Positions 1,825-8,462 of a stretch of DNA of 64,000 bases are shown one piece after another. The DNA is from Escherichia phage ph0011. The stretch lies in the sequence record OP557969.1; one strand, written 5' to 3'. A model generated the notes under the pieces. The model was not told the origin of the DNA. It searched no databases and worked only from the letters and a program-made list of their open reading frames with translations. Positions within the stretch are counted from its first letter, which is position 1, and each line of letters begins with the position of its first letter. The position numbers and the translations under genes are program-made.

Positions 1825-2664
1825 ATGACAAGTAGACCAAAGCGTAAAAAGTATCTCAACAATGCAGATTTACTTCGTGAAATACAAAAAAGTAAGATTT
1901 CATACTGCTGGTTATTAGATAAATCATATAGTATGTATGATTATATTGTCTTTCATGAATCTGAAATCACGGCTGAGTTACTTGAAAAAGCTAAAGCAGC
2001 ACGAATTAAAAGACTCAACAATGAAATGCTTGAAAGTATTCGTGCAAAGGAAAACATGAGTGCAAAAAAAGCAAAGGAATATGCAGAAGAGAATAATTTA
2101 GTTATTACTGACGTTCCAATTGATGAAGTTGTTATTCGTGTTATTACTGATGAACACATTCCACCAGATACTAGAGTTAACTTTGAACCATTCAAGCATT
2201 ATATTGTGGATAATGAAGGTATCCTTTATGAAGTTTGTCGTTCTCACTGGAAAGGTGACCTAGAAACAGGTGAATTCTGCACTATTCACGGTAAAATTAC
2301 TAATGAATTGGGTAAAATGTTCATTAAACTTGCAGAGGAAATCTCACACAAATCTAATTATAGAAACTATACTTACTTAGATGAAATGATGGGCGATGCA
2401 AGAATTCAATTAGTTAAAAATGCACTACTCTTTAAAGAGAGTATTCTTTATAAAAAAGATAAACCAGCCGTACAATTAAATCCTTTCTCTTACTATACAT
2501 CGTTTGTTAACAATAGCTTTCGTTCTATTTTGAATAGTGAGAAAAATGTTCGAAATATACGTGATGATTTACTCGAAATGCATGGTTTTACACCATCACA
2601 CACACGTCAAATTGAAATTGAATTGAACATGATTGAAAGGAAAAATGAAGATGGCTCTATTTGA
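1825..2664 (+). CDS. 55: Late-transcription sigma factor gp55-like
   Basis: The N-terminus (KRKKYLNNADLLREIQ) resembles the T4 gp55 N-terminus as recalled from memory; it is followed by gp47 and gp46 as in T4. Confidence 0.65.
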   Translation: MTSRPKRKKYLNNADLLREIQKSKISYCWLLDKSYSMYDYIVFHESEITAELLEKAKAARIKRLNNEMLESIRAKENMSAKKAKEYAEENNLVITDVPIDEVVIRVITDEHIPPDTRVNFEPFKHYIVDNEGILYEVCRSHWKGDLETGEFCTIHGKITNELGKMFIKLAEEISHKSNYRNYTYLDEMMGDARIQLVKNALLFKESILYKKDKPAVQLNPFSYYTSFVNNSFRSILNSEKNVRNIRDDLLEMHGFTPSHTRQIEIELNMIERKNEDGSI

Positions 2665-3682
2665 TAAAGCAATTACATTCACTGATATTCACTTGGGATT
2701 AAAGAATAACAGTAAACAACACAATGAAGATTGTTTAAACTTCATTAAATTTATGATAGATGAAGCAAAAAAGAATAATATCAAAGTTTGTGTTTTTATG
2801 GGAGATTATTTTCATAATAGAAGTAATATCAACATTCAAACACTAAACTATGGTTTACAGATTCTTCAACTACTGAATGACAATTTTAAAAAAGTATATT
2901 TTCTTGTTGGGAATCATGATATGTACCATAAGAACAAACGTGATATCACAAGTATCAATATGGCTCAAGTATATGAAAATATCGAGTTCATCAATGAAAT
3001 CACAACATTTGACGATTGTACATTCATTCCATTTATGATTGAAGATGAATATAAACTATTACCTCAACTAAAAAGTAAGTATGTTTTCGGTCACTTAGAA
3101 TTACCAGGGTACTTACTTAATAAGATGGTAGAAATGCCAGACCATGGGAAAGAAACCGATGGTTCTTTTAGTGGTTGTGAATATGTTTTTAGTGGGCATT
3201 TTCATAAAAGGCAAGCAAAAACAACATCTAAAGGAACTCGTGTTGTTTATACTGGTAATTGCTTCCCACATAATTTTTCCGATACGTGGGATGATGCAAG
3301 AGGTGTAATGATTCTCGAACACGATAAAGAACCAATTTTTAAATCGTGGGATAGTGCACCAAAATATCGAACATTCACACTTTCCGAATTATTGACTGAC
3401 CCCAGTTATTATCTTCAAGATAATACAATTTCTAAAGTTCAAATTGATATATCAATAACAACGGATGAGATTAGTTTTATTCGTGATACTTTTACTAAAC
3501 TATACAACATTAGAGAGTTTAATGTTGTAACAAGTAAACAAAATGTATCAGAATTAATTGAAGATGGTGTCAATTTTGAAAGTACTGAATCAGTTGATGA
3601 GATTGTTTTACAACAAATCATGGAAATTGATTCACCAATGTTTGATAAAAATCTTCTAATCCAAATTTACAGATCATTATAA
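2633..3682 (+). CDS. 47: Recombination endonuclease subunit gp47 (Mre11/SbcD-like phosphoesterase)
   Basis: Calcineurin-like phosphoesterase motifs (FTDIHLG, GDYFH, GNHD); immediately upstream of the Rad50-like gene. Confidence 0.8.
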   Translation: MKGKMKMALFDKAITFTDIHLGLKNNSKQHNEDCLNFIKFMIDEAKKNNIKVCVFMGDYFHNRSNINIQTLNYGLQILQLLNDNFKKVYFLVGNHDMYHKNKRDITSINMAQVYENIEFINEITTFDDCTFIPFMIEDEYKLLPQLKSKYVFGHLELPGYLLNKMVEMPDHGKETDGSFSGCEYVFSGHFHKRQAKTTSKGTRVVYTGNCFPHNFSDTWDDARGVMILEHDKEPIFKSWDSAPKYRTFTLSELLTDPSYYLQDNTISKVQIDISITTDEISFIRDTFTKLYNIREFNVVTSKQNVSELIEDGVNFESTESVDEIVLQQIMEIDSPMFDKNLLIQIYRSL

Positions 3683-3690
3683 GGGACTAT

Positions 3691-5838
3691 ATGCTAAACA
3701 TTACACGTATATCTATGCGAAACTTCTTTTCATTCGGTAATGCACCACAAATTATTGAATTGAATAGTTCTGACATTTCATTAGTACTGGGTCAAAATAA
3801 TGATGCAGTTATTGAAGGTGGTGACAGTTCTGGACGACGAAATGGTGTAGGAAAAAGTGCAATTATTCAAGGATTAGTTTTTGGATTATTTGGAAAAAGT
3901 ATTGGGAATGATATTAAAATCCCTAACTTAGTTAATAAAACTAATGGGAAAAATTGCGAAGTTGTGGTAGAGTTTGAAAAAGACGGTGTGCAATATATTG
4001 TTGAGCGTGGGAGAAGTCCCACGTATTTCAATCTTGTTACTTTAGGTAAAGATGACAAAATTGAAGATGAATCAAGGGGTGAAAAGAAAGACACTCAAGA
4101 AGATTTGAATGAAATTCTTGGAATATCTCAATTATTATTTGAACATATTGTAGTACTGAATGCAAACGTTGAACCTTTCTTGGCGTTATCCACACAAAAA
4201 CAACGTGATATGATAGAAGAACTTCTAGGTATAACACAGTTAACAGAAAAAGCCGAAATATTAAAGGAGATGTACAAGGATACTAAACGCTTAGCAGAGC
4301 AAGAAAAGTTTAAAAATGAAACAGTTGCTGCAAGTAACGAACGTATTCAAAAAAGTATTGAGGTTCTTCAAGAACAGGCAAACCAATTTGAGATCGATAA
4401 AAGTAATAGAGTAGCGAAGTTAAATGAAGAGTTGAATATTTATAAAACGTTCGACTTCAATGAACTCTATAAAGCTGCTGAAGAGAAAGAGAAAGCTCTT
4501 ATTCATAACACAAAGCGTAATGAAATAGAACGCCGTGTACAAGATTTAGCTTTAAAATTTGATGCATATGACCGTGAGATTGAATCATCCAAACGTGCAC
4601 TAAAACTAAGCATTGATAAACTAAAAACTATTGATATTAGTGCTGAGTTGGAAAATCATAATGAACTAGAGATATGGAAACAGTTAGAAGACATTCTTAA
4701 AGAGAATAATAACCAAAAACGTTTCAAAGAGCAAAAGCTAAACTCACTAAAAGTTGCATTAAAAGGGTATGAATGTTCAATTAATGCTGAAATTGACAAA
4801 TTATCAACCGTTGAAAATAGTAAATGTCCACTTTGTATGTCAGAATTGGAACATAATGAACATACTTCTTCAATTAAAGATAAAATTCAAAGTACTATTG
4901 ACGATCTTCAAGCCAAAATTGACAGTTCTTCTTCTGAAATTGAGATTTTACTTAAAGAAATTGAGAGTATTGAGATTTTTGATATGCCACCTAAGCCTGT
5001 GACATATTATAATACACTTTCAGAAGCACAAATGCATGAACATAAGCTTCAAGAATTGATCAAAAAGAGTGAAGAAGAGCCAATAAACATCTATGCAAAT
5101 GAACTTATGTCATCATATGATGAACTTAACTCATATGAACTAATGGAAGTTCCAGATACATTAAACAAATATGAAGTTAAAGAGTTGGAAATGACCGTAA
5201 ATTCATTATCACAGCAATTAGATCGTGAATTGAAGACTACTAACACATTTATTAGTCAAATTAATACCCTGAAGACTGATTCTTTAGTACCAATCGATTA
5301 TAGTGACTATAATAATCTTGATAAAATGTCAAATCACCAAGATTTCTTGGTTAAATTACTTTTAAACAAGGATTCTTATGTCCGTAAACGTATTATTGAG
5401 CAAAATATCTCATATTTGAATACACGACTTCAGTACTATATCGATATGTGCGGTTCTGAGCATAATGTTGTGTTTTTGAATGATTTGAGTGTTGAAATTG
5501 AGAAGAGTGGGCAGTACTTTGACTATAAACAGCTTAGTCGTGGCGAGCGTACAAGGGTAAACATTGCTTTATCATGTGCTTTCCGTGATACATACGAGTC
5601 ATTATATCAAAGTATCAATCTAATAGCACTAGATGAAGCTTGTGATGTTGGTCTTGATTCAAGTGGTGTAGTTAAAGTGTGGTCAATCTTCAATGACATG
5701 GCTGCTATCAGAAATAAAAATGTATATATCATCTCTCATAGAGAAGAACTAGTTTCTAAGACTGAACATATACTTAAAGTAACTAAAGAAGATGGTTTTA
5801 GTACTATAAGTTACTGTACAATTGATGATATCTATTAA
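3691..5838 (+). CDS. 46: Recombination ATPase gp46 (Rad50/SbcC-like)
   Basis: N-terminal Walker A (RRNGVGKS), long coiled-coil middle, C-terminal signature/Walker B region (LSRGERTR, LIALDEA). Confidence 0.8.
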   Translation: MLNITRISMRNFFSFGNAPQIIELNSSDISLVLGQNNDAVIEGGDSSGRRNGVGKSAIIQGLVFGLFGKSIGNDIKIPNLVNKTNGKNCEVVVEFEKDGVQYIVERGRSPTYFNLVTLGKDDKIEDESRGEKKDTQEDLNEILGISQLLFEHIVVLNANVEPFLALSTQKQRDMIEELLGITQLTEKAEILKEMYKDTKRLAEQEKFKNETVAASNERIQKSIEVLQEQANQFEIDKSNRVAKLNEELNIYKTFDFNELYKAAEEKEKALIHNTKRNEIERRVQDLALKFDAYDREIESSKRALKLSIDKLKTIDISAELENHNELEIWKQLEDILKENNNQKRFKEQKLNSLKVALKGYECSINAEIDKLSTVENSKCPLCMSELEHNEHTSSIKDKIQSTIDDLQAKIDSSSSEIEILLKEIESIEIFDMPPKPVTYYNTLSEAQMHEHKLQELIKKSEEEPINIYANELMSSYDELNSYELMEVPDTLNKYEVKELEMTVNSLSQQLDRELKTTNTFISQINTLKTDSLVPIDYSDYNNLDKMSNHQDFLVKLLLNKDSYVRKRIIEQNISYLNTRLQYYIDMCGSEHNVVFLNDLSVEIEKSGQYFDYKQLSRGERTRVNIALSCAFRDTYESLYQSINLIALDEACDVGLDSSGVVKVWSIFNDMAAIRNKNVYIISHREELVSKTEHILKVTKEDGFSTISYCTIDDIY

Positions 5839-5845
5839 TAACAGA

Positions 5846-5872
5846 AAAGGGGGCTTATGCTCCCTTTTTTAT
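5846..5872 (+). terminator. Rho-independent terminator after gp46
   Basis: GC-rich hairpin (AGGGGGC-TTAT-GCTCCCT) followed by TTTTTT. Confidence 0.6.
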
Positions 5873-5947
5873 TATCATTATATCTATTGTTTCCATACAT
5901 CCTACATTGAACTAGATTTTGTAAGATATAGGATTGGTAATGTGTTT

Positions 5948-6442
5948 TTATTTTGTATCTCTTTTTACATCAACCATGTTTAATTTACCGTCCTTAATTA
6001 GCTTTCTAGCTTGTTTTACACGAGCAGTAGTGTTGCTACCAGGGACGACACCTAACCCTTCCAGAATTGCGTTTTGCTGCGTTGCTGGAAGCCTTTTAAA
6101 CTTATTCACATCTACTGTTAGTGCTGTGTGATGTATCACTTGCTCTTCTAGTGGGATGTTGTTGTTCTTTTCAAGATAATCTGCCAGATTTCTTAGAACT
6201 TCATGTAAAGGCATATCAGTTAAATGCTTTCCATATCGGTTCCATGCGTTGGAAACTTTACCTTCAAATGCGTTTATTTCATTCTGTAGAACTTCACGAC
6301 AGTGTTGGTTACCATAGTGGTAGTGATCCAGTACTGGTTTAGTTATTGGTTCCTTAATTATAGGATCAATTCCTTTTTGCTTCTTTAGTAATTCATTACG
6401 ATAGTTTGCAGCTTCTTTACTATCTTTTAATCTTTTCTTCAT
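5948..6442 (-). CDS. Free-standing HNH / endonuclease VII-like nuclease (putative homing endonuclease)
   Basis: Motif LDHYHYGNQHCREVLQNEINAFEG fits the DHxH...N...G pattern of EndoVII/HNH nucleases; lone minus-strand gene between conserved genes; late-promoter-like ATAAATAT upstream on the minus strand. Confidence 0.45.
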   Translation of the reverse strand: MKKRLKDSKEAANYRNELLKKQKGIDPIIKEPITKPVLDHYHYGNQHCREVLQNEINAFEGKVSNAWNRYGKHLTDMPLHEVLRNLADYLEKNNNIPLEEQVIHHTALTVDVNKFKRLPATQQNAILEGLGVVPGSNTTARVKQARKLIKDGKLNMVDVKRDTK

Positions 6443-6536
6443 AAATCCCCACCAAACTAATTTTTATAAAAATATTTATGAGTTACATTAGAGAACAATA
6501 ATTATGTGTTTTTTGATAAATAAATTTAAATTATTT

Positions 6537-6564
6537 GAGACAACTTTGAAGTTTGTGCTATAAT
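6537..6564 (+). promoter_or_regulatory. Sigma70-type promoter: GAGACA, 16-nt spacer, TGTGC-TATAAT (6559..6564); no annotated gene downstream
   Basis: Same conserved motif as the other five promoters; A/T-rich upstream region. Confidence 0.5.
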
Positions 6565-7015
6565 GTTTGATGTAGTAATGACAATCCTGTTGAATGCAGA
6601 AATGCATATAAATTAGAACCTGATCCTATCGAAAATGTAGATGGCAGATGAGCAGTTCAACAGTGCGATGAGCAGAAGAAACCCGTCAGAAGTGGGCATA
6701 GTTTGAACCCCTCACGGCAATGCGGCTCAATAAAGAACTCCGATAAGCACACAGAGAGTTCCTAGATAGACATATAAGGAATCACACCTTACCAGATTTG
6801 CTAAGGGAGTTTATTAATTGATTTTAATAAACAGCCTGAAGTTTGATTGTATAGACTTTCAGGTGAGTGCTGGGATGAAAAGACCAGTGACCGTTGCATA
6901 TGACCGTGATAGGGAGAAACAGAGCAACCCGCTTCCGTTTGTGATTGATCATTTTTACAATATAGATCCGTCCAAAATTCACGATACAATAAATGCTGAA
7001 ACCATCAGCGTCAAG

Positions 7016-7040
7016 AAGAGACTTAATTGTCTCTTTTTTA
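7016..7040 (+). terminator. Rho-independent terminator closing the orphan transcription unit
   Basis: Hairpin AGAGAC-TTAATT-GTCTCT followed by TTTTTT. Confidence 0.55.
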
Positions 7041-7255
7041 TTACTTTCATTCCCCTGTGGGGGGATGAAAATGTCCTCAACAAATCCCGTCAAGTTTTAA
7101 ATCTTTAAAAGTTCTTTCTAAATTAATTTAATGAAATGAATATGAGTTACGTAGTAACGAATATTCTTCAGGTAACGAATGAAATGAGTTAGCTGAATCC
7201 AATATATTAAAATTAATCTTTCATAATTCAATTCAAATAATTCTGTAGTTTAAAA

Positions 7256-7285
7256 ACAAAAAACCAGCAACAATGTGCTGGTAAT
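7256..7285 (-). terminator. Rho-independent terminator of the minus-strand operon 8339..7294
   Basis: On the minus strand: CCAGCA-CATTGT-TGCTGG followed by TTTTTT. Confidence 0.55.
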
Positions 7286-7293
7286 TATGTGAT

Positions 7294-7503
7294 TTAGTGC
7301 TTCTCGTTTTGTTTTTTAATTTTCTTATTAAAAGACTTAACTAATAAGTCTCTATCTATTAAAGGCATATTAAGAAGTGTTCCATAGTCAATATTATCCA
7401 TATAAACAGAACACTCCATTAGTGCTTGTTTGATTTCTGACTTATTCAGTTCTATCTCCCTTATGACTTCTTGTATTTCTTCAGGAGTTGACTGGAGAAG
7501 CAT
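7294..7503 (-). CDS. Hypothetical protein (69 aa)
   Basis: ORF in track; its start codon overlaps the stop of the upstream gene. Confidence 0.3.
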   Translation of the reverse strand: MLLQSTPEEIQEVIREIELNKSEIKQALMECSVYMDNIDYGTLLNMPLIDRDLLVKSFNKKIKKQNEKH

Positions 7504-8339
7504 TACTCGAAAAAATGACTAGGATCATATTTTAGTCCATCAATTTCCCATTGATGATTACAGTTACTACATTCAACTTCCATAGTATGGGAGACACCAA
7601 TCTCAAGTACTTCATCCATTTTTTCACGAATTAGTTTAAGAACTCCCTTCGATTGTTGACCGAGCCATTCATTAATAAATTCCTTTTCAACTACTTCATC
7701 ACCGTCTGGTGTTATAATTTTTGCAATAACTCCACCAATCATATCAAAATTAAGTTGAGCCATACTTTCAAAAACTTCTGAAAATATTTTTACTTTTTCA
7801 TCATTGTCAATATCAGCAGTTTCAAGAAACTTGGTTTTTTGTTGTTCGTTGAACATGCGTTCTGCAAAAGATGAATATTCTTTCCATGTAAGTGGTTTAA
7901 ATTCCAAACGTAGACCGTTATCCAAATCAACAGAAGGAATTTCACTAAATGATTTCGCAGTTTCAAGTAGATATGATAGATTACGCTCAAAGCGTCCCTC
8001 TTTTTCACATTCAGGACATACTACGTTAATGTCATATGTTTCTTCTTTCGAAGCAACTTTAATTGCAATAAGAAGCATTTCAACGTCATTTACATATAGT
8101 TCATCTGCATCAATTACATTCGGAACACAGTTCTCAATCACACGTGATACTGCATCACCATTTAGTAGCATATCTGGTGTATTCAGTGTCATTTCATCAC
8201 GTGCACTACGTGCACAAACTCCGCACTTGACACCTTTTGGTCCTAGTACTCCATCTTTATAAGGAATAACGCCGTTTGTAACCAACTTAGTACTGATCTC
8301 TTCAATTTTAGTGTACTTAGCAAGTGGATTCATAGCCAT
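7503..8339 (-). CDS. Zinc-ribbon protein (three CxxC pairs); possibly baseplate-hub related by position
   Basis: The track ORF extends to 8444, but the likely start is MAMNPL at 8339. CxxC motifs: CGVCARS, CPECEK, CSNCNH. Divergent from the tape-measure-like gene. Confidence 0.35.
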   Translation of the reverse strand: MAMNPLAKYTKIEEISTKLVTNGVIPYKDGVLGPKGVKCGVCARSARDEMTLNTPDMLLNGDAVSRVIENCVPNVIDADELYVNDVEMLLIAIKVASKEETYDINVVCPECEKEGRFERNLSYLLETAKSFSEIPSVDLDNGLRLEFKPLTWKEYSSFAERMFNEQQKTKFLETADIDNDEKVKIFSEVFESMAQLNFDMIGGVIAKIITPDGDEVVEKEFINEWLGQQSKGVLKLIREKMDEVLEIGVSHTMEVECSNCNHQWEIDGLKYDPSHFFE

Positions 8340-8462
8340 TTTGTTAAATCTCCATGTAATAAATGTGTTTGTAGTATTTATAATACTAAAAACAAACAAT
8401 TTTTTTATATTATATATAGTTTCATAAATATTTCTATAATACATCTATTAAAAGGGAATGTT

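Follow-up and report, generated by a model that had tools for sequence, protein, structure and literature searches.

What does the short minus-strand ORF that faces gp46 encode, and is it a mobile gene or a resident one? The 64,000-nt stretch of Escherichia phage ph0011 DNA in which it lies (hereafter the window) comes from an Asteriusvirus-like jumbo coliphage (121Q/PBECO4/G17, "Rak2-like"). A sequence-only reading had taken the ORF for a free-standing HNH/EndoVII-like homing endonuclease gene directed at a conserved neighbour. Our analysis indicates that it is very probably the resident endonuclease VII gene (endoVII) of this phage group, an orthologue of T4 gp49.

The ORF listing gives the minus-strand ORF just as that reading had described it (Table 1). 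Its translation includes VLDHYHYGNQHCREVLQNEINAFEGK, and the DHYH...NAFEG motif that had drawn attention to the ORF is found at residues 39-61. The claimed location, between a gp46 terminator and a non-coding stretch, also agrees with what we see, the hairpin lying on one side and positions 6443-7293 on the other; neither the ORF list nor the relatives compared gave a conserved protein-coding ORF in this upstream stretch. As read from the sequence, a U-rich tract follows the hairpin on both strands, and the hairpin carries a terminator annotation in G17, UE-S1, and Munch. It is probably a bidirectional terminator for gp46 and endoVII.

Table 1. Features of the gp46/endoVII locus, in window coordinates.
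Feature	Position	Strand	Remarks
gp46-like ORF	3691-5838	+	A strong hairpin with T-run follows 5 nt after its end
TH47-type (homing-endonuclease-gene lineage) tract	5539..6518		Covers gp46 3' end, scar and most of endoVII; otherwise G17-type backbone
GC-rich hairpin	5843-5870		Scan on + strand; between convergent gp46 and endoVII
Remnant of a putative endonuclease gene	5855..5947	-	Frameshifted; roughly last 35 codons and inherited stop; MUG113/T5orf172 (GIY-YIG-like)
endoVII CDS	5948..6442	-	164 aa, ATG start; very probable orthologue of T4 gp49 recombination endonuclease VII
Catalytic beta-beta-alpha-Me (DHHRN) core	6260..6328	-	Residues 39-61: D39, H40, H42, R49, N57, E60
Shine-Dalgarno-like GTGGGGA	6446..6452	-	3 nt upstream of ATG; sequence reading
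Late-promoter-like ATAAATAT (cATAAATA)	6472..6479	-	ATAAATA core ends 30 nt before endoVII ATG

Searches with the single sequence were empty or sub-threshold. Pfam Endonuclease_7 (PF02945) reached E=0.027 and 14.8 bits against a gathering cut-off of 23.6, NCBIfam gave no match, and phmmer found nothing in PDB; a homologue profile and a fold comparison were therefore needed. A profile of 30 homologues retrieved T4 EndoVII from PDB (1e7d/1en7/2qnc) at E=3.5e-13, with profile positions 13-140 aligned to T4 residues 10-143 of 157, and PHROG 423 ('endonuclease VII') matched residues 1-150 of the window protein at E=8.7e-35. The AF2 monomer model (pLDDT 93.7) had T4 EndoVII at the top of its Foldseek matches (1e7l/2qnf/1en7; E=1.5e-7 to 1.8e-6, probability 1.00, TM 0.53-0.65, 161 aligned columns). 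These chains were its only significant matches in PDB, the next one having E=0.73. The E-values of all three comparisons put a chance resemblance to EndoVII far out of range. A precomputed PF02945 match exists for several homologues at 58-73% identity, and the shortfall of the window protein fits its loss of cysteines, described below.

The family assignment of the sequence-only reading, an EndoVII-type His-Me finger nuclease, stands. None of the Pfam HNH families matched the protein even at E<=10, and a match to PHROG 36860 ('HNH endonuclease') was weak (E=2e-4). In EndoVII/DHHRN enzymes the motif has no counterpart to the central Asn of HNH (PMC6083498), and with no significant HNH profile match a canonical HNH endonuclease was rejected.

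Comparison with T4 gp49 (PDB 1EN7, 1E7L, 2QNC) shows proteins of similar size (164 vs 157 aa), collinear over T4 residues 10-143 and alike in fold (best TM 0.65), in six catalytic residues and in architecture, each having an N-terminal catalytic domain followed by a C-terminal helical domain. In the profile alignment, D39, H40, H42, R49, N57, and E60 of the window protein correspond to D40, H41, H43, R54, N62, and E65 of T4. A late-promoter-like element lies upstream of the gene, as in T4, and the phage also encodes gp46, gp47, and gp55 homologues. The two proteins differ in that only ~21% of residues are identical and all four zinc-binding cysteines of T4 are replaced; the gene neighbourhood, in which endoVII of the window converges on gp46, is also different.

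The catalytic core and the zinc site have had different fates. D39, H40, H42, R49, N57, E60, and G61 are invariant in the 30-sequence alignment. Of the 156 homologue cluster representatives sampled, 154 retain D-H-H-R-N; P0135 and P0180 do not. The T4 zinc ligands C23, C26, C58, and C61, on the other hand, align to D26, I29, Q53, and I56. Because every ligand is missing and the T4 EndoVII mutants C23S and C61S show neither activity nor DNA binding (cited in PMC6083498), homology by itself does not guarantee activity. DHHRN enzymes take their family name from the catalytic residues and not from the cysteines (PMC6083498), and the window protein was therefore filed as a zinc-less member rather than excluded. 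It has much company: among the 156 nearest representatives 8 have all four Cys, 14 have three (CCHC), 2 have two, and 132 (~85%) have none or one. The CCHC and one-Cys forms are apparent intermediates toward the zinc-less state. This state extends to the rV5-like phages (Vequintavirinae), whose 'EndoVII packaging and recombination endonuclease' is 46% identical to the window protein over residues 5-117 and has the same DHHRN core. In their best-fitting clusters, P0116-P0120, the four positions are free of Cys apart from a single one in one cluster; these proteins differ in being shorter (~127-141 aa) and in having a C-terminal part that has diverged or is truncated.

On balance we favour, with moderate confidence, the existence of a large zinc-independent branch of EndoVII (DHHRN) resolvases in which D26, I29, Q53, and I56 stand in for the cysteines without loss of the catalytic core, of the fold or, evidently, of the function. 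Our literature searches for a zinc-less EndoVII found nothing specific. If such a branch exists, the zinc site of EndoVII would be a structural support that the enzyme can do without, and the consensus in the literature (CX2-4C-DHDH-CX2C) would, like the present Pfam model, cover only part of the family. The homologues would form a natural series of the EndoVII fold without its zinc site that is biochemically easy to test.

The same four substitutions could instead mark a compromised relative, in which loss of the zinc knuckle has left a protein that binds DNA or junctions, or a nuclease with a changed specificity, in place of a true resolvase. The loss of DNA binding and of activity in the T4 zinc-site mutants points in this direction, as does the sub-threshold Pfam score. 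We nevertheless consider this unlikely. D-H-H-R-N and E60 are invariant over a large and old clade, which is unexpected for a dead enzyme; the zinc-less state is stable and widespread; and in the AF2 model the T4 fold continues, at pLDDT 97-98, through the region that binds zinc in T4. What is more, Iyer et al. 2021 assign the T4 endoVII-like protein to one subgroup of jumbo phages as its Holliday junction resolvase and find its distribution across jumbo phages nearly complementary to that of RuvC, which suggests that it fills the resolvase role.

As a member of the resident EndoVII lineage, the window protein would be, by homology, a dimeric His-Me-finger (DHHRN) nuclease acting on branched DNA. 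Its junction specificity and dimerisation, its role in packaging and its late timing are inferred from T4. By that analogy it would depend on Mg2+ to nick Holliday junctions, Y-branches and heteroduplex loops, resolve the intermediates of recombination-dependent replication, and debranch the concatemer so that the ~350-kb genome could be packaged. The gene is convergent with gp47 and gp46, which encode a recombination nuclease of the Mre11/Rad50 type, and is probably transcribed from a late promoter that depends on gp55 (cATAAATA, 30 nt upstream).

The sequence-only reading had noted a late-promoter-like motif upstream of the gene, and ATAAATAT is indeed there, at a position where G17 and UE-S1 have TATAAATA. 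The T4 late promoter TATAAATA is not enriched in the window (7 observed vs 10.5 expected); the shorter ATAAATA was therefore examined by its position upstream of genes. Half of its occurrences in the window (13 of 26 sites) fall 10-60 nt upstream of gene starts, which were crudely called, against 0.7 expected. The motif is thus strongly positional, while the 8-mer ATAAATAT shows no overall enrichment (16 observed vs 12 expected). ATAAATA has been proposed, from phage CBB, as a putative late promoter of Rak2-like phages (PMC5259590). Upstream of endoVII the motif stands where it usually does in this phage group. The Shine-Dalgarno-like element is kept as GTGAGGA or GTGGGGA in G17, UE-S1, and TH47.

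An EndoVII-fold nuclease could also have another main job, for example degradation of host DNA or the countering of host defence. His-Me finger nucleases are functionally diverse, the DHHRN fold occurring also in the restriction enzyme Hpy99I (PMC6083498), and jumbo phages carry many conflict genes (PMC7824862). Here, however, endoVII adjoins gp46, gp47, and a gp55-like sigma factor gene in a block with virion genes rather than among variable accessory genes, a promoter motif of late type precedes it, and its product has the architecture of T4 gp49 over its full length, C-terminal domain included. Such a role is therefore very improbable.

Whether endoVII is a resident of this locus was examined in three Asteriusvirus phages (G17, UE-S1, and TH47), Salmonella phage Munch, and the Erwinia Eneladusvirus pEa_SNUABM_50. 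The window and all five share the order gp55-gp47-gp46 followed by convergent endoVII. Amino-acid identities of endoVII to G17, UE-S1, TH47, Munch, and pEa_SNUABM_50 are 88, 82, 94.5, 67, and 60%, and those of gp46 are 92.6, 91.9, 89.4, 63, and 57%; on these figures the divergence of endoVII appears to track that of gp46 across genera, as expected of a gene inherited with its flanks. Comparison with relatives that lack the gene, which the sequence-only reading had proposed, found no such relative: none of the five has an empty site for endoVII. Among phage records, 72 have a full-length copy of endoVII and 72 have a portal at >=60% identity. The sole truncated copy is in Salmonella phage SD-1_S14, where apparently only the 3' third of the gene is present. 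In that phage the gp47 space is annotated as two short 'hypothetical protein' CDSs, and if gp47 is split, a sequence or assembly error there is likely.

An endonuclease VII annotation is already in use for 121Q, PBECO4, G17, CBB, and related phages, among them UE-S1, Munch, and pEa_SNUABM_50, and is now confirmed. The Rak2-like 'endonuclease VII' genes (121Q gp594, PBECO4, G17_00330, CBB_248, Munch_273, pEa_SNUABM_50_00242) are orthologues at the same locus with 60-94% amino-acid identity, from which the window gene differs in essentially nothing except its TH47-type allele and a homing-endonuclease scar downstream. In the CBB paper endoVII (CBB_248) is listed with gp46-gp47 (printed CBB_246, 267) among the homologues of T4 recombination proteins and is given a T4-like role in packaging, recombination and repair (PMC5259590). 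The identical protein is present in NCBI as a hypothetical protein from an E. coli assembly. For the endoVII gene little changes; the side results (the zinc-less series, the homing-endonuclease-gene scar and the RNA described below) may be more useful.

Could endoVII nonetheless be a free-standing homing endonuclease that cuts gp46 or gp47 and spreads by double-strand-break repair? Homing by an enzyme with the EndoVII catalytic motif is known from cyanophage S-PM2, whose F-CphI shares with the window protein the D-H-H-R-N motif and the beta-beta-alpha-Me fold; F-CphI too is the product of a small phage ORF, first annotated as gp49-like (PMC6083498). Its motif, however, is C-terminal (residues 71-129), behind an N-terminal region, and the protein keeps the CX2-4C / CX2C zinc motif; its distribution is sporadic, and it cuts a specific psbA site (PMC6083498). 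Resolvases are separated from homing and restriction enzymes by an N-terminal motif and a whole-length alignment to T4 EndoVII (PMC6083498). In the window protein the motif occupies residues 39-61 of 164, the alignment extends over T4 residues 10-143 of 157, the cysteines are absent, the locus is fixed, and there is no extra DNA-recognition domain of the F-CphI kind.

The position of endoVII, a small gene on the opposite strand wedged between a terminator and an intergenic region, and the recombinant tract at a locus to which mobile endonuclease genes are drawn may still suggest homing. Against this, the T4 collinearity places the protein in the resolvase clade, all relatives examined have the gene at this one locus, across genera it diverges much as gp46 does, its count agrees with that of the related portals, and the presence/absence polymorphism at the locus belongs to other ORFs; the homing proposal is extremely unlikely and already close to refuted. 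The sequence-only reading had set against its own proposal a gene conserved at this locus in all relatives with a non-nuclease function; we find the conservation, and the conserved function is still that of a nuclease. A false homing-endonuclease lead is thereby removed.

The suspicion that the locus hosts a mobile endonuclease nevertheless had some basis, though in other ORFs than endoVII: one between gp46 and endoVII that is intact in TH47 and a scar in the window, and another in Munch, where a different mobile endonuclease gene lies upstream of endoVII. The TH47 gene is a 340-aa ORF (L003 1856-2878, minus strand) that overlaps the endoVII stop codon as ATGA. Its profile matches are to Pfam MUG113 (E=5.9e-5) and to PHROG 681 ('endonuclease', E=3.4e-41), and from such profiles it has a putative MUG113/T5orf172 (GIY-YIG-like) catalytic domain. 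The window remnant aligns to this ORF both in DNA and in translation, and the scar junction fits a deletion that ran from one CATTACCAA direct repeat to the other, the two being ~903 nt apart in TH47. In G17 and UE-S1 the site is empty, with 18-19 nt between the gp46 and endoVII stop codons. The remnant is the deletion scar of a genuine GIY-YIG-like free-standing endonuclease gene.

The surrounding tract was mapped at positions where G17 and TH47 differ. Up to 5505 the window has G17-type sites, and then 88 unbroken TH47-type sites from 5539 to 5968; a G17-type patch at 5972-6031 is followed by mainly TH47-type sites from 6143 to 6518, after which the sequence is G17-type again. Among 50,697 phage records only TH47 shares the gp46 3' allele of the window, all others being <=78% identical. 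We considered whether ECO103 4-12-1 and EC22.5-2 also carry the TH47 insertion and rejected this; both have the G17-type gp46 3' allele, and their extra ~1 kb must therefore lie elsewhere. Within Asteriusvirus endoVII lies inside a ~1-kb TH47-type tract that includes the gp46 3' end. The neighbouring endonuclease gene, of which the scar is left, explains this tract better than homing of endoVII would. As at other mobile endonuclease loci, an ORF inserted between two conserved genes is found intact (TH47), as a scar (window) or not at all (G17, UE-S1), and a donor-type tract of ~1 kb is centred on the insertion site. At the gp46/endoVII junction the life cycle of a jumbo-phage homing-endonuclease gene could thus be followed in compact form.

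The non-coding stretch beside endoVII was examined separately. It contains no tRNA or tmRNA genes, and Rfam searches at E<=1 and E<=10 returned only noise; in eight paralogous RNA loci searched at E<=0.1 no family was found, apart from one sub-threshold terminator-like match. Overlapping ORFs of 96 aa (plus strand) and 89 aa (minus strand) were rejected as coding, since all that relatives have in common there is an invariant RNA block, which falls in different frames, and the indels are not multiples of three. RNase P RNA and a group I intron (P/Q/R/S elements), suggested by a likeness seen by eye, were also rejected; the Rfam models gave no match and the pseudoknot topology differs. An nhmmer profile had no match in the region with ncRNA001 and ncRNA002, two of the ncRNAs of PA5oct defined by RNA-seq. 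No second copy was found within the window, and literature searches for a large pseudoknotted RNA gave nothing specific. The stretch encodes a pseudoknotted RNA of ~510 nt, apparently a member of an undescribed class of large RNAs; it is present in several copies per genome, and each copy has a host-type promoter.

The endoVII ORF is the resident counterpart of T4 gp49, an ordinary endonuclease VII orthologue that is already annotated. As the sequence-only reading had stated, a 164-aa minus-strand ORF carrying the motif is listed by the ORF finder, and it lies between the gp46 terminator (a hairpin with a T-run) and a non-coding stretch, 6443-7293 upstream of it, in which no conserved protein-coding ORF was found. 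It is convergent with the gp46/Rad50-like ORF. By megablast, 49 jumbo-phage records, including 121Q, PBECO4, G17, phAPEC6, UE-S1 and TH47 (genus Asteriusvirus, the "Rak2-like" group), match 5000-8000 at roughly 84-88% identity, and the feature under the ORF in these records is annotated as "(DNA/recombination) endonuclease VII". NCBI has the identical protein as a hypothetical one, encoded on a 350-kb contig in E. coli assemblies.

Features of the endoVII locus, in window positions unless a phage locus is named
Feature	Position	Strand	Remarks
gp55-like ORF	1825-2664		5' of gp46-like ORF
gp47/Mre11-like ORF	2633-3682		5' of gp46-like ORF
gp46/Rad50-like ORF	3691-5838	+	715 aa
TH47-type recombinant tract	5539-6518		sites distinguishing G17 from TH47; centred on scar
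GC-rich hairpin	5843-5870		12 bp, with T-run
Putative deletion scar of TH47-type endonuclease gene	5855-5947	-	aligns to 3' end of TH47 ORF
endoVII ORF	5948..6442	-	164 aa, ATG start (ORF finder)
Catalytic motif DHYHYGNQHCREVLQNEINAFEG	endoVII residues 39-61	-	from translation
Shine-Dalgarno-like GTGGGGA	3 nt upstream of endoVII ATG	-
Late-promoter-like cATAAATAtttt	end 30 nt upstream of endoVII ATG	endoVII strand
Near-consensus sigma-70 promoter	6535-6564	+	TTGAGA-N18-TGcTATAAT; 11/12 matches, extended -10
RNA conserved core	6584-7098	+
Terminator-like hairpin	7013-7038	+	internal to RNA
C/G hairpin	about 7049-7072	+
Intact endonuclease ORF, TH47	locus L003, 1856-2878	- (endoVII strand)	340 aa; fills gp46/endoVII space
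Second endonuclease-like ORF, Munch	locus L004, 4988-5944	-	318 aa; between endoVII start and RNA promoter

The proposed EndoVII-type family was confirmed by several searches. The protein matched PHROG 423, "endonuclease VII", over its full length (E=8.7e-35), while the Pfam family Endonuclease_7 was indeed found, but below threshold (E=0.027); NCBIfam gave no match, nor did a single-sequence phmmer search of the PDB. A profile made from 30 aligned homologues (A1) retrieved T4 endonuclease VII from the PDB (1e7d/1en7/2qnc, E=3.5e-13), covering residues 10-143 of its 157. By fold, the AlphaFold2 model (mean pLDDT 93.7) matched only three PDB chains significantly, all of them T4 EndoVII: the probability was 1.00, E ranged from 1.5e-7 to 1.8e-6 and TM reached 0.65, with 161 columns aligned. 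The match after these had E=0.73. Residues D39, H40, H42, R49, N57, E60 and G61 are invariant among the 30 homologues and correspond in the profile alignment to T4 D40, H41, H43, R54, N62, E65 and G66.

In T4 EndoVII a single zinc is coordinated by C23, C26, C58 and C61, and activity is lost in the mutants C23S and C61S, as cited in a passage of PMC6083498. The window protein, in contrast, lacks all four cysteines, with D26, I29, Q53 and I56 in their places in both the profile alignment and an independent MAFFT alignment, although its catalytic residues are kept. The A1 profile had 948 matches at E<=0.001 among 1.84 billion cluster representatives. When the best 149 of these were aligned with seven others, D-H-H-R-N was kept in 154 of the 156 proteins; four cysteines were present at the zinc positions in 8, three (CCHC) in 14, two in 2 and none or one in 132. 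The zinc-less state, which accounts for the weak Pfam score, is, to judge from this alignment, stably kept across a large clade, the enzymes of rV5-like phages among them. In a limited literature search we found no mention of a zinc-less EndoVII, and this zinc-less active-site scaffold is what is most novel about the gene itself.

The space between gp46 and endoVII differs among the phages. In G17 and UE-S1, where the site is empty, the two stop codons are 18-19 nt apart and have a terminator in common; in the window they are 109 nt apart, and in TH47 an intact ORF lies between them, overlapping the endoVII stop as ATGA. This 340-aa ORF matched Pfam MUG113 above cut-off (E=5.9e-5), T5orf172 below threshold and PHROG 681, "endonuclease" (E=3.4e-41), which fits a free-standing endonuclease of the GIY-YIG superfamily. 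Translated in two frames, the corresponding window segment reads KNTLPILYLTK and FNVGCMETIDIMIIKKGA (ending at a stop), the TH47 counterpart being KNSLPIRYLTKNEFGVGYTETID...IIKKGA (also ending at a stop). The TH47 ORF contains the direct repeat CATTACCAA twice, near codon 4 and about 903 nt further downstream, and the window junction ACAAAATAAAAACACATTACCAATCC is the expected product of a deletion between the two copies. Judging by alignment and junction, the segment is the deletion scar of a free-standing endonuclease gene of MUG113/T5orf172 (GIY-YIG-like) type, and it merits separate attention.

At sites that distinguish G17 from TH47, the window is G17-type up to 5505, is TH47-type at 88 sites in unbroken succession (5539-5968), has a G17-type patch at 5972-6031 and mostly TH47-type sites at 6143-6518, and is G17-type again beyond 6518. 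Its gp46 3' allele is shared with TH47 only, among 50,697 phage records, and is as distant from that of other Asteriusvirus phages (73-78% identity) as from that of Klebsiella RaK2 (72%). The tract resembles what co-conversion around a homing event, followed by loss of the endonuclease gene, would leave behind, and this is the history we infer; it is possible that ordinary recombination produced it. Another endonuclease-like ORF, that of Munch, is an insertion in this phage only and is different from the TH47 ORF. It matched PHROG 559, "HNH endonuclease" (E=1.4e-70), and PHROG 9084, "homing endonuclease", contains repeated CxxC treble-clef motifs, and is on the ncRNA strand with TATAAATA just upstream. 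ECO103 4-12-1 and EC22.5-2 have about 1 kb extra somewhere within the 3-kb region 5000-8000.

The endoVII ORF itself had been read from the sequence as a homing endonuclease, for which there is a precedent in F-CphI of cyanophage S-PM2, a homing endonuclease of the "DHHRN" family that uses the EndoVII motif (PMC6083498). In that family the motif is C-terminal in the homing/restriction clade, while members of the resolvase clade have it at the N terminus and align to T4 EndoVII along their whole length (PMC6083498). Unlike F-CphI, the window protein is built like the members of the resolvase clade: it has an N-terminal motif, the T4 EndoVII alignment and the T4 EndoVII fold. Nor is the distribution of the gene sporadic. 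Comparison with relatives placed it at the same locus in G17, UE-S1, TH47, Salmonella phage Munch and the Erwinia phage pEa_SNUABM_50, an Eneladusvirus (amino-acid identities of 88%, 82%, 94.5%, 67% and 60%, respectively, against 92.6%, 91.9%, 89.4%, 63% and 57% for gp46). All five have gp55-gp47-gp46 converging on endoVII, followed by a gap of ~800 nt, a small ORF and the baseplate hub in the endoVII orientation, and the tape measure and portal in the opposite one. A portal at >=60% identity is present in 72 phage records, and a full-length endoVII copy in 72. Because of this architecture and this distribution, the homing reading is not supported. The resident gp49 orthologue has parallels in the CBB paper (PMC5259590), which counts endoVII (CBB_248), together with gp46-gp47 (given there as CBB_246, 267), among the homologues of T4 recombination proteins, and in Iyer et al. 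2021, who assign Holliday junction resolution in one jumbo-phage subgroup to the T4 endoVII-like protein. Salmonella phage SD-1_S14 has endoVII residues 106-163 alone (the 3' third; locus L041, 3501-3674), directly abutting the ncRNA, and where gp47 is expected its annotation shows two short hypothetical CDSs. This is either a real deletion or an assembly/sequence error, the error being probable if gp47 is split.

Above all, it is the RNA next to the gene that merits separate attention. The non-coding stretch has a GC content of 39-42%, compared with 25-30% in its flanks, and a cross-genus conservation far above that of proteins, with long invariant blocks. Most related phage records gave blastn matches at 4-5 places, the Klebsiella phages at 3. 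In IMG/VR a two-block pattern found 33 loci, every one of them on a Rak2-like contig; these contigs measure 33-378 kb, most of them ~350 kb, and carry no more than four loci each. An nhmmer profile recovered a single window copy, at 6585-7096 (E=3e-107), and in RaK2 one of full length, beneath an annotated hypothetical ORF; short hypothetical ORFs are annotated over the RNA in some records. The family extends over Asteriusvirus, Munch-like phages, Eneladusvirus, Mimasvirus (CBB) and Alcyoneusvirus (RaK2), with 3-5 paralogous copies per genome. For 29 non-identical copies RNAalifold predicted 63 pairs, and compensatory changes occur in 36 of these. The structure then tested was this prediction extended manually by one hairpin and two pseudoknots; in it, 93.3% of cells were paired, against 37-45% with the partners slid, and both sides changed in 46 of 72 pairs. 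The covariation score was 0.524, against 0.09-0.14 in the slid controls, and was reached by none of 500 shuffles. Support is good for at least one pseudoknot, and we regard this as a real structured RNA family of roughly 510 nt. Neither the window copy nor eight paralogues matched a family in Rfam 15, and the family is apparently new to description. PA5oct ncRNA001/002, considered as possible homologues, showed no homology by nhmmer. The sequence uACAAUAUAGAUCCGUCcaAAAUU, about 30 nt long, is a conserved module that different copies have at either of two places (columns 335-375 or 505-535 of the RNA alignment A5); it is in the 3' position in the window (about 6957-6983), is missing in the orthologous 121Q copy, and may be a transposable tertiary-contact module.

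The late-promoter-like motif reported upstream of endoVII is present on the gene's strand; where the window has cATAAATAtttt, a perfect TATAAATA stands in G17 and UE-S1. Neither TATAAATA nor ATAAATAT was enriched across the whole window. ATAAATA, which has been put forward as the late promoter in CBB and GAP32 (PMC5259590), behaves by its position in the window like a late-promoter element: of its 26 sites, 13 are 10-60 nt upstream of gene starts, with 0.7 expected under a uniform distribution, a count that uses crudely called starts and is raised somewhat by the AT-rich intergenic composition. Late, gp55-dependent expression of endoVII is plausible from these motifs. The "baseplate hub" ORF (7503-8444, minus strand, 313 aa) is probably over-extended; its alignment to relatives begins only at about residue 26-38, and the G17 protein is annotated with 278 aa. 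Since a perfect TATAAATA (8375-8382, minus strand) lies about 36 nt upstream of an internal Met (MAMNPLAKY...), the true start is likely near 8339.
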